The notes: generated by a model from the sequence alone, not told the origin. A stretch of 41,115 nt of DNA from Candidatus Daviesbacteria bacterium RIFCSPHIGHO2_01_FULL_40_11 (GCA_001776635.1 MFCP01000040.1:12552-53666), one strand, 5' to 3'; shown: positions 18,500-23,294, counted from the stretch's first letter. Made by a program: numbers and translations.

Positions 18500-18949
18500 C
18501 TACTCTCCCAAAGCTATCCTTTCAAATCTTCCTACTTGTATATTTTCTCCTACTTTTCCAATCACCGTTTTTATCAACTCTTCTACAGTCAAAGAATTAT
18601 CCCTAATATACTCCTGGGACAAAAGTTCTTCAACGCTTGATGGGTTCATTGAGGCAATTTGTAAAGCCAATTCATGAGCTAAATTCTTAAAATCTTCTGT
18701 CCTTGCTACAAAATCTGTTTCACAAAGTACCTCTACCAAAACCCCAACTCTCCCACCATGAGAATAAACTTCCACCATTCCTGCTTTAACTTCCCTTTCA
18801 GCCTTAGAAGAAGCTTTATCAAGACCTTTTTTCTTAAGCCACTGTTTGGCTTTTGCCAAATCCCCATCAGACTCTTTCAAAGCCTCCCGGCAACCAGCAA
18901 TACCAGCCCCAGTTTCTTCTCTTAGTTTTTTAATAAATTCTATATCCAT
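18500..18949 (-). CDS. tsf: Elongation factor Ts, short form (start reassigned to MDIEF)
   Basis: IKKLREETGAG, EVLCETDFVART, GENIQVGRF; AGGAG 5 nt before ATG; 149 aa. Confidence 0.95.
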   Translation of the reverse strand: MDIEFIKKLREETGAGIAGCREALKESDGDLAKAKQWLKKKGLDKASSKAEREVKAGMVEVYSHGGRVGVLVEVLCETDFVARTEDFKNLAHELALQIASMNPSSVEELLSQEYIRDNSLTVEELIKTVIGKVGENIQVGRFERIALGE

Positions 18950-18967
18950 AAAAACTCCTAGTAGGAC

Positions 18968-19104
18968 GGCGAAGTCTGAGACAACAAGGTAATCGGTACA
19001 GTTGAGCGCACCACTTACTCCATGACCCAAACCTTACTCGGCGCGAAACAAACCGATAGCGAGCGATGTGGTCGCGCGAGCGGTACTTTGTGTCCAGACG
19101 AGCC
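18968..19104 (+). repeat. Structured intergenic element, copy A (rpsB-tsf)
   Basis: GGC-GAA-GTCTG...CAGAC-GA-GCC outer stem; shares ACTCGGCGCGAAACAAAC with copy C. Confidence 0.85.
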
Positions 19105-19111
19105 AGACTCT

Positions 19112-19954
19112 TTATTCTACCACCCTCTCCGATTCCTTAACCGCTTTCTTTTCTACCATCTCCTCAGCCTCTGCCACTTCCTCCTTTAATTCCTCCTGTA
19201 TCTCCTCATCTGTCTGTTTTGCTGCTTCTTTTTCCTCTTTTTTCAAAAGCTTCTCAGCTACTTTCCCTGCTTCCTTTTTACCCTCAGCATAGGCCAAAGC
19301 TACAGCTCCCACTAATATTTTAATAGATTTTATAGCATCATCATTACCAGGGATAGGATAATCAATTTCAGTTGGGTCAGAATTTGAATCTGCAATTGCC
19401 ACTACTTTTACGTTTAATCTCTGAGCTTCCCTAATGGCAATATTATCTGACACTGCGTCTACTACAAAAATTGCATCAGGAAGCTTATCAAGATTCATCG
19501 CTCCGGCAAAATCTTTTTGAAGCTTACTCATTTTTCTCTCTAAAAGTAATTGTTCTTTTTTGGTATATTTGGAAAGTTGCCCTTTTTCTTTCTGCTCTAA
19601 ATATTCTTTGAGTCTTTTAATATTTTTCTGAATTTGCTCAAAATTGGTTAAAAAACCTCCCATCCAACGCTCTACCAAAAATGGCGCTTGTAGTTCCTTC
19701 GCCAACTCCTCTATGATAGGTTTTGCTTGTTTTTTTGTTCCGACAAACAGTAATACTTTACCCTCTTTGCCTAGATTGTAAACAAACTCGCAGGCTTCTT
19801 TTAAGTATTGTTCGGATTGGGTTAAGTCAATAACATGGACACCCTCCCTGGCACCATAAATATATGGGCGCATTCTCGGGTGGCCACGTCTAACCTGGTG
19901 TCCAAAATGGACTCCGGCTTCCAGTAATTCTTGTAAACTAGGTAATTTGTACAT
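19112..19954 (-). CDS. rpsB: 30S ribosomal protein S2
   Basis: LLEAGVHFGH, LFVGTKKQA, RWMGGFLTNF, IPGNDDAIKSI. Confidence 0.98.
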   Translation of the reverse strand: MYKLPSLQELLEAGVHFGHQVRRGHPRMRPYIYGAREGVHVIDLTQSEQYLKEACEFVYNLGKEGKVLLFVGTKKQAKPIIEELAKELQAPFLVERWMGGFLTNFEQIQKNIKRLKEYLEQKEKGQLSKYTKKEQLLLERKMSKLQKDFAGAMNLDKLPDAIFVVDAVSDNIAIREAQRLNVKVVAIADSNSDPTEIDYPIPGNDDAIKSIKILVGAVALAYAEGKKEAGKVAEKLLKKEEKEAAKQTDEEIQEELKEEVAEAEEMVEKKAVKESERVVE

Positions 19955-20012
19955 AGTCTCTTAATCCTCCTCATAGTCAGTGGTTTCTCAGAGACTTAAA
20001 CTATGAGTGTGT
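19955..20012 (-). promoter_or_regulatory. rpsB 5' leader, putative pseudoknot around SD and start codon
   Basis: mRNA ACACA CUCAUAGU UUA AGUCUCU ... ACUAUGAG GAGGAUUA AGAGACU AUG. Confidence 0.65.
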
Positions 20013-20021
20013 AATAGCGGT

Positions 20022-20050
20022 ATTCTATCAGGATCAAACTAATTAAGCAA
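20022..20050 (-). promoter_or_regulatory. rpsB sigma70 promoter
   Basis: TTGCTT-N17-TAGAAT with TG extension. Confidence 0.7.
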
Positions 20051-20090
20051 GACTAATATTTTGACAAATATGATACAATTTATAACCGTT

Positions 20091-20312
20091 ATGGAAAAAA
20101 TAGAAGTCAGGGTTGGTAGAGAATATCCAAACGGTAACATACCGGGGATATCAAAAGTAGGCGGTCAAATACTCTGTCGGCCAATAATGGAATCTGTAGA
20201 TCCCAGAGTACAGTATTCCAAGTTAATAGGAGGAGAGCTTAAACCAGCAGAATTTGATCCTACAACCGGACAAGAAACAGTATTTGAACATCCACAACAT
20301 CCGCACTTTTAA
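20091..20312 (+). CDS. Small hypothetical protein (ATG 20091 preferred over TTG 20061)
   Basis: Fills the gap; TGaTACAAT -10 box upstream; no motif recognised. Confidence 0.5.
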   Translation: MEKIEVRVGREYPNGNIPGISKVGGQILCRPIMESVDPRVQYSKLIGGELKPAEFDPTTGQETVFEHPQHPHF

Positions 20313-20323
20313 AAATTCTTAAA

Positions 20324-20818
20324 TTATCTTTCCAACTCCAAAAATCTATACTTAAACCCATCTGATTCCTGCTCCTGTGACTGCCAGACTTTTCTTTTAA
20401 ATTCCGAATAATCGGGGAAAAATGTGTCGCCTTCTATCTCCGTATCAATCACTGTGAGATACAGCTTATCTGCTAAAGGCAAAGCCTGCTTGTAAATCTC
20501 TCCTCCACCAATTATAAAAACTTCTTTATCGCCCGCTTTGCCCACCACCTCTCTTAGAGCTTCTTCCAGCGAATGTACAACTATTATACTCTCTGATGCA
20601 TAGTTTGATTCCCGGGTGATCACAATATTTGTTCGACCAGACAAAACTTTTCCAATAGACTCATGGGTTTTTCTACCCATAATAATAGGATGCCCCATGG
20701 TAATTTCCCTAAACCTTTTTAGCTCTTCGGGGATATGCCATGGCATTCCACCCTTTTTCCCAATCACTCTTTTACTTCCTGCTACAGCTACTATGATGCT
20801 AATTCTTGGTTTTTTCAT
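20324..20818 (-). CDS. folA: Dihydrofolate reductase (start reassigned to MKKPRIS)
   Basis: MPWHIPEELKRF, IIMGRKT, GRTNIV, FIIGGGEIY, GDTFFP. Confidence 0.96.
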   Translation of the reverse strand: MKKPRISIIVAVAGSKRVIGKKGGMPWHIPEELKRFREITMGHPIIMGRKTHESIGKVLSGRTNIVITRESNYASESIIVVHSLEEALREVVGKAGDKEVFIIGGGEIYKQALPLADKLYLTVIDTEIEGDTFFPDYSEFKRKVWQSQEQESDGFKYRFLELER

Positions 20819-21752
20819 AATATCCACCTGCCACAGTGAGCTCTGCTTTAATAACGGGAAGAGGATCATAGTTTTCCAAAGTCACAAGAATCGGCTTAAA
20901 ATCATCAATCTTTTTAATGCCAGGATCTAATTTAACAGTTGGAAAAGGCCTTGGTTTTCTTTTAATTTGTTCTTTAACTTGGGCGAGGTGATTTTCATAG
21001 ATATGGACATCACCGAAGGTGTGAATAAATTCTCCAGGCTTAAAACCTGTAATTTTAGCCAAAATCATCGTTAATAAAGCGTAGCTTGCGATATTAAAAG
21101 GCACACCCAAGAAAACATCACAACTCCGGTGGTAAAGCTGCAAAGAAAGCTTACCGCCTCTCTGGTTGATCTGGAACATATTATGACAGATCGGAAAATA
21201 AGAGGTATCCTCCTTTGTAGCCATGGTATAAAGATATTCCGGATTCCAGGAATTGACAATCAAATTTTTGGCATCCGGGTCTTCCTTTAATTCCTGGACT
21301 ATCCATTTTAGCTGGTCAATAGTTCTACCTGTCCTGGTGGGCCAGCGCCTCCACATCTCTCCGTAGATCCTGGGTAGATTTCCCCATTTTTTAGCAAACT
21401 TATCATCGGTTCTAATTTTTTCAATAAATTCTTCTTTTGTTAGTGAATCGTTGTTTTTAAGTTTGGAAATTTTATAGGGGTAATCATCCCAAATGTGGAC
21501 ATTGCGGTCGACTAAATATTTTATATTTGATTGTCCTGAAAAAAACCAATAAAGTTCCTCTAAAACCCCCTTCCAATACACTTTTTTTGTGGTGAGTAAT
21601 GGAAAGCCTTGCGAGAGATCAAAACGGATCTGGCGACCGAAAACACTGTAAAGTGCTACATCAGTACCTCGGTCAATCTTCTTGACTCCGTTTTTTAGGA
21701 TATCTTTTAATAAATCTAAATACTGATATTCCTGATGCCTTGGTCTAGCCAT
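20799..21752 (-). CDS. thyA: Thymidylate synthase
   Basis: FPLLTTKKV, PICH catalytic Cys, RSCDVFLGVPFN, GDVHIYENH. Confidence 0.97.
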   Translation of the reverse strand: MARPRHQEYQYLDLLKDILKNGVKKIDRGTDVALYSVFGRQIRFDLSQGFPLLTTKKVYWKGVLEELYWFFSGQSNIKYLVDRNVHIWDDYPYKISKLKNNDSLTKEEFIEKIRTDDKFAKKWGNLPRIYGEMWRRWPTRTGRTIDQLKWIVQELKEDPDAKNLIVNSWNPEYLYTMATKEDTSYFPICHNMFQINQRGGKLSLQLYHRSCDVFLGVPFNIASYALLTMILAKITGFKPGEFIHTFGDVHIYENHLAQVKEQIKRKPRPFPTVKLDPGIKKIDDFKPILVTLENYDPLPVIKAELTVAGGYYEKTKN

Positions 21753-21771
21753 AATTTTCTCTTATGATAAC

Positions 21772-21918
21772 AGCAGCGAAGTCACAAGTAAACAAAAAAT
21801 GTTGAGGATTTTGTGCTAATTGACTAAATGACTCGAGCCCATTGGTAGACACAAAATTCTCACAAGCGAGCAACGATACTAGCGTGCGAGCGATTTTTTG
21901 TACTGTGACGAGCTCGCT
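21772..21918 (+). repeat. Structured intergenic element, copy B (dUTPase-like gene to thyA)
   Basis: AGC-GAA-GTCACA...TGTGAC-GA-GCT outer stem; inner TGAGGATTTTGTG/CACAAAATTCTCA hairpin. Confidence 0.85.
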
Positions 21919-22486
21919 ATACTTGTCTCTCTGTTTTTTTCGGACTCACTCTTCCACCTTGATGTTGACCCCTGTAAGAAATAGTTTTGCCTTTTATCTT
22001 ATGAAAAATAATATTACAAATCCTGGCCCCCAGTTGTAACTTTACAGGAAAGGGGCTTAAATTAGTCAATCCCATGGTCAGTTTACCACTGTATCCCGGG
22101 TCTGTTTTTGAATTAAGAAGCAGCAGTCCTGCTCTAAAAAGAGAGGTTCTGGTGTGAACTATCGGCATTAAATCTAAGGGGGTATTGACCGACTCTACTG
22201 TTTGAACCAGGTAATATTGTCCCGGCTTTATCACAATTTTCTTCTGCAGTCTACTCCCATCCACATATTCTGCCACCAGTGTTGTTTCCACCCCTTTCCT
22301 TTTGCCCAATTTAATATCACCATCTGCTTCAATAAAAGCCCCACCTCCCACTATTTTGCGAACAGCACCCAACCGAAGATCAATTCCCGCTCCTTCCGGG
22401 TTTTTAAGATCTCTCTGTCCTAAATTCTTGATTAAGGAATGCTTCTTAATTCTTTTATGAATTTCATCAAGTCCAAGCACACTCAT
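21917..22486 (-). CDS. Trimeric dCTP deaminase/dUTPase-family protein, probably archaeal-type dUTPase
   Basis: GIDLRL, RTSLFRAG, DPGYSGKL, YRGQHQ; no Glu at the Dcd catalytic position (LTMG). Confidence 0.75.
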   Translation of the reverse strand: MSVLGLDEIHKRIKKHSLIKNLGQRDLKNPEGAGIDLRLGAVRKIVGGGAFIEADGDIKLGKRKGVETTLVAEYVDGSRLQKKIVIKPGQYYLVQTVESVNTPLDLMPIVHTRTSLFRAGLLLLNSKTDPGYSGKLTMGLTNLSPFPVKLQLGARICNIIFHKIKGKTISYRGQHQGGRVSPKKTERQV

Positions 22487-22496
22487 AGTTTGTATG

Positions 22497-22642
22497 GAGT
22501 GGCGAAGTCACAAGTAATCAAAAAATGTAGTGCAGTTGAGCGTACTACTAACTTTATGCTCCAGACCACACTCGGCGCGAAACAAACTTCAAGCGAGTGA
22601 CGTGGTCGCGTGAGCGGTTTTTTGTACTGTGACGAGCCACTC
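22497..22642 (+). repeat. Structured intergenic element, copy C (dcd to dUTPase-like gene)
   Basis: GAGTGGC-GAA-GTCACA...TGTGAC-GA-GCCACTC outer stem; B-like ends with an A-like core. Confidence 0.85.
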
Positions 22643-23294
22643 ATTTCCTTCCAGACTTTTTGCCATGACGAGCCCGTTTACCCATTAAATTCGAAACCTG
22701 CGGTAGGTTACTGCCTCCGTATCTATTATTTGGACTTTTATGGTACGGACGCTTCACCGGAGCAGCCAGCTTCTCAAAAGAAAATGCACAAATCGGGCTA
22801 CCCTCATAAATCACTAACTTTTTGCCTTTCAAAAAGGTGCCAAATTCCAAAACCGGATGGCCATCCCAACCCGGATCAAACCTGGCTGCTGTTGAGTGAA
22901 CCACTACACCTAACCTAGCCAAAGAACTTTTTCCATGCAAATACCCCACAATATTATCGGGCAAAGTTAACCTTTCATAAGTCGTGGCAATCACAAAGTC
23001 ATGTTCGGTCAAGATAAATGGTTGTCCCGGTTTTAACTCCACCAACCTCATCATAGATTCCATATCTTCTTTGCTGGCATACCTGGTATCAATGGTGTTT
23101 AACCCCTCATCAGTAAAAACCCGCAGTTTATTCCCCAGATGAAAATCAATTGTCACCTCATCTACTGCCTCTTCCCAATTTTTTGGCAAAGGATCTATTT
23201 TTATAATCCCCTTTTTAATATGTTCTTTAATTGCCCAATCCGGCAAGGTTCCGAGAATATCTTCCACTTCCTTTTTATTCCTTCTTTTTGGCAT
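22641..23294 (-). CDS. dcd: dCTP deaminase
   Basis: IDFHLG, GKSSLARLG..VH.TA..FDPGWDG, VLEF (catalytic Glu), ICAFSFE. Confidence 0.9.
   Translation of the reverse strand: MPKRRNKKEVEDILGTLPDWAIKEHIKKGIIKIDPLPKNWEEAVDEVTIDFHLGNKLRVFTDEGLNTIDTRYASKEDMESMMRLVELKPGQPFILTEHDFVIATTYERLTLPDNIVGYLHGKSSLARLGVVVHSTAARFDPGWDGHPVLEFGTFLKGKKLVIYEGSPICAFSFEKLAAPVKRPYHKSPNNRYGGSNLPQVSNLMGKRARHGKKSGRK

Follow-up and report, generated by a model that had tools for sequence, protein, structure and literature searches.

The 41,115-nt stretch of DNA analyzed here, referred to below as the window, comes from Candidatus Daviesbacteria bacterium RIFCSPHIGHO2_01_FULL_40_11 (GCA_001776635.1 MFCP01000040.1:12552-53666), a groundwater bacterium of the candidate phyla radiation (CPR) whose genome (G000) comprises 964 kb in 42 contigs. 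Between positions 18968 and 22642 the window carries three copies, A, B, and C, of a repeat of ~140 nt, and our results support the existence of a structured, strand-polar, multi-copy family to which they belong. The strand with the GAA/GA and GA/GA internal loops, which for A, B, and C is the plus strand, is called the GA strand throughout. A prediction made earlier from the sequence of the window alone (the original prediction) had described the three copies as one branched element, and they are indeed true repeats with the limits given there: they align end to end with a mean column identity of 75%, make up the longest repeat families in the window, and each carries GCGAAG and GACGAGC at its plus-strand ends. 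The copies and the genes around them are listed below, with helices P1 and P3 as in the fold described further on and bit scores of the copies taken from the covariance model.

18968..19104, plus strand: copy A, subtype 1, between rpsB and tsf; 134.1 bits; P1 GGC/GCC, with the GAA loop at 18971-18973 and its GA partner at 19100-19101; P3 formed by CAAGGTA (18985-18991) and TACTTTG (19084-19090); central arm GTTGAGCG (19001-19008) / CGCGAAAC (19042-19049); right arm GCGAGCG, 19059-19065 / 19076-19082
21772..21918, plus strand: copy B, subtype 2, between a dCTP-deaminase-like gene and thyA; 122.1 bits; central arm a plain 9-bp helix; GCGAAG at 21776-21781 and ACGAGC at 21908-21913; outer stem overlapped by the TAG stop codon of the upstream gene (21917-21919)
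22497..22642, plus strand: copy C, subtype 1, between two dCTP-deaminase-like genes; 138.3 bits; P1 GAGTGGC/GCCACTC; GCGAAG at 22502-22507 and ACGAGC at 22632-22637; P1 overlapped by the TGA stop codon of the upstream gene (22641-22643)
18500..18952, minus strand: tsf (short EF-Ts), PF00889; starts downstream of copy A after a short spacer with an AGGAG ribosome-binding site
19112..19954, minus strand: rpsB (ribosomal protein S2), PF00318, 277.6 bits; stop codon 7 nt from copy A
20799..21752, minus strand: thyA (thymidylate synthase), downstream of copy B
21917..22486, minus strand: dCTP-deaminase/dUTPase-like gene, PF22769 and PF00692; copy C upstream, copy B downstream
22641..23294, minus strand: dCTP-deaminase-like gene, PF22769; stop codon overlaps copy C

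Almost all genes of the window are encoded on the minus strand. Copy A occupies a short operon gap (rpsB - A - tsf), while C and B interrupt a second operon in the order dCTP-deaminase-like gene - C - dCTP-deaminase/dUTPase-like gene - B - thyA - DHFR. As had been predicted, every copy starts at or within ~7 nt of the stop codon of the upstream gene, A being 7 nt away and B and C overlapping it.

For searches and comparisons we used a profile built from A, B, and C and a covariance model (R1) built from the 14 full-length copies of G000. The fold of the GA strand is closed by an outer stem, P1, whose core of 3 bp is often lengthened to 7–10 bp; inward of it come a 3 × 2 internal loop (GAA/GA), P2 (5 + 4 bp with a bulged A), and the 7-bp P3 (CAAAAAA/TTTTTTG or covarying versions), from which a three-way junction opens into a left arm (P4-P5, the central arm of the list) and a right arm (P6, GC-GA-GCN...NGC-GA-GC). 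Across the 14 G000 copies standard pairs filled 92.8% of 499 pair cells vs. 77.5 ± 1.1% in shuffles, and double changes occurred at 24 of 36 pairs vs. 14.5 ± 1.7; none of 500 shuffles reached the observed value of either measure. With the register slid as a control only 31–49% were paired, and RNAalifold alone recovers 26 of the 36 modeled pairs. The covariation returned the outer stem, central arm, and right arm of the original prediction, and the covarying stems named there (GGC/GCC vs. AGC/GCT, GTCTG/CAGAC vs. GTCAC/GTGAC, and ATCGGT/ACCGAT vs. TGTAGT/ACTTCA) are present.

Three subtypes were distinguished. In subtype 1 (copies A and C) the left arm carries the loop GTT-GA-GCG/CGC-GA-AAC; in subtype 2 (copy B) it is a plain helix without a GA/GA loop; subtype 3 combines a short left arm, again without a GA/GA loop, with a long right arm. 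The claim that the GA loops stay fixed between copies therefore holds in part: the letters of the GAA/GA loop and of the right-arm GA/GA loop show about 95% conservation, being kept in 39–47 of 47 copies from 25 genomes, whereas the central-arm GA/GA loop is found only in subtype 1. Every GA loop stands between a pyrimidine and a purine (Y-GA(A)-R), a setting in which tandem G.A pairs of the sheared type form both in RNA and in DNA. Among 80 copies the GA strand was predicted to be more stable than its complement in 61 with RNA parameters (by 3.1 kcal/mol on average) and in 68 with DNA parameters (1.8 kcal/mol). Mismatch cells in the 36 modeled pairs of the 47 copies numbered 43 G.T vs. 55 A.C, of which 15 G.T cells and many A.C cells arise because subtypes 2 and 3 are out of register in the model alignment; when only robust helices were counted, by hand from the per-pair table, the values were 19 vs. 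15. The wobble counts favor neither strand and we claim no strand preference from them. From a strand-specific functional RNA one would expect a clear excess of G.U, and none was found.

The profile search of G000 yielded 19 places, 14 of them full-length copies of 135–146 nt and five partial ones. With the covariance model the same 14 scored 116–147 bits, and four weak matches followed at 22–30 bits. The search was extended to 60 genomes, namely 36 of the bacterial family that includes G000 (f1, with public records titled Candidatus Daviesbacteria) and one genome from each of 24 other families. Within f1, 24 of the 36 genomes gave 1–19 matches, distributed over 11 of 43 genera including that of G000 itself, and 12 gave none at the threshold used. 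The covariance model found no match in the 24 genomes of other families, and a broader sampling of the class, with 143 genomes that represent 50 other families, likewise gave none. When 185,579 species, each represented by a single genome, were scanned for an exact pattern, 69 loci emerged, of which the model confirmed 41 (50 matches). These 41 are titled Candidatus Daviesbacteria (27), unclassified ‘bacterium’ (2), ‘Patescibacteria group’ (1), and ‘uncultured Gammaproteobacteria’ (11). None of the other 28 loci, which come from other phyla, was confirmed by the model, and their number is about that of the chance matches estimated; of three pattern matches in viral contigs the model likewise confirmed none. 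As far as searched, the family is thus confined to one CPR family, that of the Candidatus Daviesbacteria titles. The original prediction had not recognized the element as a named family, and Rfam agrees with this, with no match for the whole window at the gathering score and none for positions 18900-22700 at E ≤ 1. Literature searches found no paper on such a repeat in Daviesbacteria or CPR. The records titled ‘uncultured Gammaproteobacteria bacterium’ with confirmed copies are L133, L136, L140, L148, L174, L180, L182-L184, L190, and L191; the title is doubtful, because at least two of them coincide by coordinates and score with f1 genomes.

Comparison of orthologous junctions revealed both filled and empty sites at rpsB|tsf, at thyA, and within a glycosyltransferase gene. 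The rpsB|tsf junction was compared across 19 genomes of the genus of G000: ten are empty, with a gap of −5 to +31 nt, five are filled by the family (subtype 1 in G000, G018, and G008, subtype 2 in G014, subtype 3 in G012), and four hold other inserts. At the thyA junction (site B), G000 and G012 carry the element, whereas the site is empty in G014, with a gap of 16 nt, and in G018, whose upstream stop shares an ATGA with the start of thyA. All five genomes compared have a copy at site C, though of differing subtypes, and in G012 a 27-nt remnant adjoins there a full copy of another subtype. Among 13 orthologues of a GT4/GT1 glycosyltransferase (GT1) a loop is filled or empty, being empty in four species and holding shorter remnants in others, and the open frames of NusG range from 193 to 373 aa across the genus. 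Junctions that are filled or empty, different subtypes at the same junction, and remnants beside full copies show mobility and support the proposal of a non-autonomous mobile element whose enzyme is not encoded in the window.

The other inserts at rpsB|tsf are unrelated palindromic or repetitive sequences of 134 nt (L052, genome G017), 126 nt (L057, G001), 70 nt (L054, G006), and 47 nt (L053, G016); it seems that, in this genus, small repeats in general tend to land at this junction.

No autonomous parent was seen among the partial hits of G000, which are half copies or have internal deletions; in none of them do the ends enclose a gene. Two internally deleted mini-copies of ~45–57 nt (G000:C35:17537-17576 and G000:C3:13658-13705) join the left terminal ~30 nt to the right terminal ~13–25 nt, with the GAA/GA loop and the outer stem retained. 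Spacing between full copies is uneven, and groups of them often fall within a few kb. A target-site duplication was not found in general: for 66 copies the direct-repeat score of their own flanks was 5.13 vs. 5.09 ± 0.14 for mismatched flanks. No shared target word of 4–5 nt was seen at the boundaries by eye, in a search that was not exhaustive. The assembled reads of four metagenome runs held many short contigs that stop in or beside repeats, with doubtful joints (88% likeness) and no clean empty-site allele, and nothing was drawn from them. As exceptions to the general lack of duplication, imperfect direct repeats of 12–20 nt that correspond to the old stop/start junction flank site B (21768-21920 and flanks) and an orthologue (L127), and one of ~19 nt occurs at L191; insertions into overlapping stop/start junctions may survive only if the junction is duplicated.

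In 50 of 82 distinct copies a co-oriented open reading frame (ORF) ends nearby, with a median of 5 nt (interquartile range 3–8) from the stop codon to the P1 core, and in the same 50 copies the next start follows the fold at a median of 20 nt. Since empty junctions measure just −5 to +31 nt and room is needed for the ribosome-binding site of the downstream gene, tolerance can explain this placement, without a stop codon as the target. Nor is the element strictly intergenic, as had been supposed. Of 47 copies with flanks, from 25 genomes, 39 are intergenic and eight lie within ORFs whose frame stays open, with Pfam domains on both sides of or next to the copy. In GT1 the copy occupies the linker between two domains, in a WecG/TagA-type transferase it splits the Pfam match into two stretches, and in two species a Wzy_C membrane protein carries one; NusG, L7/L12, and L1 have copies in their N-terminal tails, and S16 has one in its C-terminal tail. 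Each in-frame copy adds a segment of ~47 residues that is predicted to be disordered. In the AlphaFold2 model of GT1 (13-sequence alignment, mean predicted local distance difference test score, pLDDT, of 76) values fall below 50 at residues 234-274, inside the segment coded by the element (~229-276) and between two confidently folded halves.

The original prediction had the GA strand antisense to every host gene. This is correct for the three copies of the window; in six of the eight copies within ORFs, however, the GA strand is sense to the host gene, and antisense only in two (GT1 and WecG). The six sense copies share one reading frame (AK[SP]E...GAKQ...PDEP). A search with the peptide of this frame retrieved 11 proteins (NusG, S16, L1), the length band covered being 166–529 aa. 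Among the 39 intergenic copies 37 are antisense to their neighbors, one is sense, and one is mixed, and sense copies are thus rare between genes as compared with ORFs (Fisher p = 2e-5, with copies that are not independent). Sense copies have an open, hydrophilic frame and are therefore absorbed into protein tails when close to gene ends, while other sense positions may be selected against.

Orientation of the family follows replication. We determined orientation for 137 matches from 25 genomes, located on 80 contigs. All 10 copy-bearing contigs of G000 have the GA strand on the strand whose GC skew is negative; of the 30 contigs overall with at least two copies, 29 are uniform. The sole mixed contig, G018:C1 (769,731 bp), has its cumulative GC skew minimum at ~120–130 kb, beside dnaA (132.7 kb), and its maximum at ~620–630 kb; copies are on the plus strand at 16 and 43 kb, on the minus strand at 136, 163, 207, 508, and 555 kb, and again on the plus strand at 689 kb. 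Orientation therefore flips at the skew minimum and maximum, and all eight copies are consistent with this. In the genomes with dnaA located (G018, G008, G012, and G023), the GA strand is the lagging strand for 19 of 19 copies. Sense copies within ORFs share the strand of the other copies on their contig (C35 of G000, C5 of G014). On C35 the seven minus-strand genes have an average GC3 skew of about −0.10, compared with +0.217 for majority-strand and −0.078 for minority-strand genes; that host genes of sense copies show the skew of the lagging strand indicates that polarity follows replication. The strand polarity of the original prediction was hence borne out, with a non-random orientation, but it is a polarity relative to replication and not to transcription. 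On the same contig a 2407-aa ORF of the majority strand (G000:C35:30190-37413) has a third-position GC skew of −0.25, unlike its neighbors, and may be recently acquired or compositionally odd.

The polarity could result from strand-specific insertion into single-stranded DNA, as for IS608, in which case the active strand would be the complement of the GA strand. Alternatively, the orientation that places the better-folding GA strand on the lagging-strand template may be lost, with hairpin cleavage systems (SbcCD) as a possible cause. The GA strand may be the functional molecule, as first proposed; it is predicted to be slightly more stable, whereas the wobble counts favor neither strand and the IS200/IS605 precedent points to its complement.

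Genes for Y1 HUH proteins co-occur with the element, as the original prediction had envisaged, but they are unlinked to it and their counts are uncorrelated. G000 encodes one such protein (216 aa, C14:13764-14414) with a PF01797 match, which the model for the REP-associated tyrosine transposase (RAYT; REP, repetitive extragenic palindrome) scores below its cut-off (51.9 vs. 80 bits). Y1/RAYT-like genes were found in 36 of 41 genomes sampled across f1, and in 18 of 19 of the genus, in 1–12 copies. The eight on G018:C1 (377–722 kb, ~215–275 aa) have intact HUH and Tyr motifs, and every one of them, like that of G000, is flanked on both sides by a private hairpin of ~15 nt. By kind these are the only enzyme candidates that we found, and weak ones; their co-occurrence was rejected as evidence for the enzyme, on grounds of flanks and counts given below. 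All eight Y1 genes of G018:C1 are on the lagging strand, which is unusual as about two thirds of genes are leading, and other genomes, compared by eye, agree with the strand of the element only partly. One below-cut-off match to rve was found in G000 and one in G008, among five high-copy genomes.

Resident copies are conserved in place. At the same site, copy A of G000 differs by 17.5% from that of G018 and by 23% from that of G008, and copy B by 21% from that of G012, while four-fold sites of rpsB differ from those of G000 by 62% (G018), 59% (G008), and 46% (G012). The element thus evolves about three times more slowly than neighboring four-fold sites. Third-position divergence shows no dip near the junction (0.56 and 0.50 in the flanking 30-codon windows), which makes a recent import of alleles unlikely. 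Two copies at site B differ at 3 of 71 paired positions vs. 29 of 67 unpaired ones, and seven same-site comparisons, which are not independent, gave 25 compensatory double changes, six single changes that keep the pair, and 15 that break it. Some changes swap whole stem versions seen in other copies, and recombination between copies may contribute. Scores in G000 are bimodal (116–147 bits, then 30 or less), and copies are intact or truncated rather than gradually decayed. We conclude that resident copies are under purifying selection on their stems.

On balance, and with slightly better than even confidence, we assign A, B, and C to a new family of palindromic insertion elements, non-autonomous and ~140 nt long, in one CPR family. 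Insertion, or survival after it, would depend on single-stranded DNA at the replication fork, as in IS200/IS605 and REP/REPIN, and the conserved loops and the termini GCGAAG...GACGAGC would be recognition features for an enzyme acting in trans. Insertions would be tolerated in disordered protein segments and directly after stop codons. The fold would then be kept as the least harmful, or an exapted, compact state between tightly packed cistrons. Several results weigh against this interpretation. Near-identical copies were found in no genome (best within-genome identity 0.88–0.92, median in G000 0.59), no recent transposition was seen, and the family is old, or slow. None of the Y1 genes of G000 and G018:C1 is flanked by the 140-nt element, and Y1 counts do not track those of elements (eight elements and no Y1 gene in G012, none and eight in G011, 16 and one in G000). 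In the five high-copy genomes RVT_1, TnpB (PF07282), IS110, DDE_Tnp_1, and DDE_3 were found in none, integrases, resolvases, and GIY-YIG being outside this search. For intergenic copies polarity is confounded with gene orientation, 37 of 39 being antisense, though only ~67–69% of the genes of G018:C1 are leading-strand. The active strand of IS608 lies on the lagging-strand template, according to PMC5027513, and the strand in that position here is the complement of the GA strand. Finally, purifying selection is not expected for purely selfish DNA and may reflect a host function; it is the stem constraint that an exclusively selfish element explains least well.

As an alternative, the complement of the GA strand may act in cis within mRNA, as a large intercistronic or 3′-end hairpin behind stop codons, with mobility only as the route of arrival. 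Such a hairpin, exapted or primary, could serve mRNA processing, 3′-end protection, attenuation, or translational coupling, like REP/BIME (bacterial interspersed mosaic element) or phage RNase III sites. The orientation of 37 of the 39 intergenic copies, by which the mRNA carries the complement, fits this explanation, as do the position of the fold between stop and next start (medians of 5 and 20 nt), a short T run after the outer stem in the mRNA sense, the selection on stems of resident copies and their threefold slower evolution, and the rarity of sense copies between genes, with the reservation on independence made above. We nevertheless consider it unlikely. No junction needs the element, as most relatives’ junctions are empty (10 of 19 at rpsB|tsf); copies within ORFs, in either orientation, cannot play the role, and the sense ones among them follow the replichore and not transcription. 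The conserved loops would moreover appear in mRNA as UC/UUC mismatches, for which no structural role is known, the near-equal G.U and A.C counts (43 vs. 55) favor neither strand, and a simple terminator scan gave nothing above shuffles.

Somewhat more doubtful is the possibility that three sheared G.A motifs make up a folded single-strand signal, which a dedicated protein of these reduced bacteria would read at the fork on only one of the template strands. This could be a new kind of strand-specific mobilization, in which the active strand, opposite to that of IS200/IS605, would lie on the leading-strand template or on the nascent lagging strand, or else a domesticated signal linked to replication or expression; either would account for conservation about three times better than that of neighboring silent sites. 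The fixed G.A architecture and the constraint in situ leave a minority chance that they point to something mechanistically new.

A host signal linked to replication, i.e., a folded single-strand DNA site on one template strand and in one orientation per replichore, like ssi or primosome-assembly sites, would fit the absolute replichore polarity. It would also fit the fact that resident copies conserve not just their pairing but their sequence, the Y-GA-R loops with their sheared G.A context in both nucleic acids, and the higher stability of the GA strand with DNA parameters (68 of 80 copies). Against it stand copy numbers of 0 to 19 among close relatives, with 12 of 36 f1 genomes having none at the threshold, and the clustering within a few kb at uneven spacing; in-coding and truncated copies resemble insertion debris, and of the two template strands it is the leading one, less exposed in single-stranded form, that corresponds to the GA strand. 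We consider this explanation improbable. Small antisense RNA genes transcribed from the GA strand are the least credible alternative and very improbable: tandem G.A loops are typical of protein-binding structured RNAs and RNA parameters slightly prefer this strand (61 of 80 copies), but the scan for promoter- and terminator-like sites gave no excess over shuffles (10 sites vs. 7.8 ± 2.9), Rfam holds no relative even at E ≤ 1, copies occur in ORFs in sense orientation, copy number varies and sites can be empty, and G.U is not in excess over A.C. One promoter-like site (TTTACT, 17 nt, TATCAT, with TG) was noted shortly before thyA on the minus strand of the window, at 21764-21792, where it covers the end of copy B together with its tail.

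As an insertion element, the Daviesbacteria repeat shares traits with several known systems and has all the defining features of none. In description it resembles the Rickettsia palindromic elements (RPE), which, as far as the excerpts of PMC10969869 go, are inserted in frame in unrelated protein genes where the added peptide is tolerated. In those excerpts they are, like the element described here, palindromes of ~100–150 bp, multi-copy, non-autonomous, without a known enzyme, and both intergenic and in frame. Both hallmarks of this kind, a dispersed 100–150-bp palindrome and in-frame insertion with an open host frame, are found in Daviesbacteria. The likeness is one of description; homology is not expected between host lineages that are unrelated. 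RPE belong to Alphaproteobacteria and not CPR hosts, and most Daviesbacteria copies are intergenic. It also has a three-way junction, fixed GA loops, and absolute replichore polarity, of which the excerpted parts of PMC10969869 make no statement for RPE.

REP/REPIN sequences are extragenic palindromes thought to be moved as single-stranded DNA by Y1 HUH enzymes (PMC6006769, in excerpt). Within the limits of that source the likeness lies in extragenic palindromes just behind genes and in the RAYT-like genes of Daviesbacteria genomes. A REP, however, is a hairpin of 20–40 nt whose foot reads GT[AG]G on the 5′ side; REPs are numerous in a genome and border the RAYT gene that belongs to them. The Daviesbacteria element, by contrast, is ~140 nt long and branched, has GCGAAG/GACGAGC termini (39–47 of 47 copies), and flanks no Y1 gene. 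Assignment to the REP/REPIN-RAYT system was rejected, as neither the GT[AG]G foot nor a cognate flanked RAYT gene is present. For IS200/IS605 orientation is tied to the replication fork (PMC5027513, in excerpt). With these elements and their gene-less derivatives (palindrome-associated transposable elements, PATEs), as portrayed in that excerpt, the Daviesbacteria element has in common the lack of strict terminal inverted repeats and of target duplication, unlike folded ends, and the fork-tied orientation. Its ends, in contrast, pair with each other and do not form separate subterminal hairpins, and no IS200-type tnpA is linked to it. A PATE would share its ends with a full-length, tnpA-bearing element and have a conserved target of 4–5 nt 5′ of the left end; among the G000 hits no gene-bearing version was found, and inspection by eye, which was not exhaustive, saw no shared target word.

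Two further candidates were rejected. A classical miniature inverted-repeat transposable element does not agree with the ends, which form an imperfect inverted repeat yet are conserved as unlike left and right sides (GAA vs. GA), the absence of a duplication signal, and the search of the five high-copy genomes, in which DDE_Tnp_1 and DDE_3 occurred in none and rve gave two matches. Integron attC sites are similar as imperfect palindromes behind ORFs, of which one folded strand is recombined, in one orientation; the Daviesbacteria element has no core sites at its ends, stands beside housekeeping genes (rpsB, tsf, thyA, nusG) and not cassettes, and is branched and dispersed, intI itself being outside the search. 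Plasmid and phage ssi, sso, and primosome assembly sites are orientation-dependent folded single-stranded DNA of ~70–200 nt with conserved loops. Each of them, however, is a single functional site of its replicon, whereas the Daviesbacteria family is dispersed, is absent from some orthologous sites, and includes copies that are truncated or inserted in frame.

CPR genomes are tiny and tightly packed, and mobile DNA in them is little known. Here, a structured 140-nt repeat has entered translationally coupled junctions and essential proteins (NusG, L7/L12, S16, and L1), and the family would provide a second, independent example of the ‘protein-coding palindrome’ of the Rickettsia type. It would also be a natural system for the way folded single-stranded DNA or RNA is recognized, one that strand polarity, fixed G.A loops, and many pairs of filled and empty sites make directly testable. 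The covariance model can flag repeats behind assembly breaks and ORFs that are spurious or extended.

Two minor observations concern the second operon of the window. The two tandem dCTP-deaminase-like genes (21917-23294) are followed by thyA and DHFR, the four making up a small pyrimidine/folate operon. In the ORF list DHFR shares 71 nt with thyA, and the true DHFR start is probably further in.

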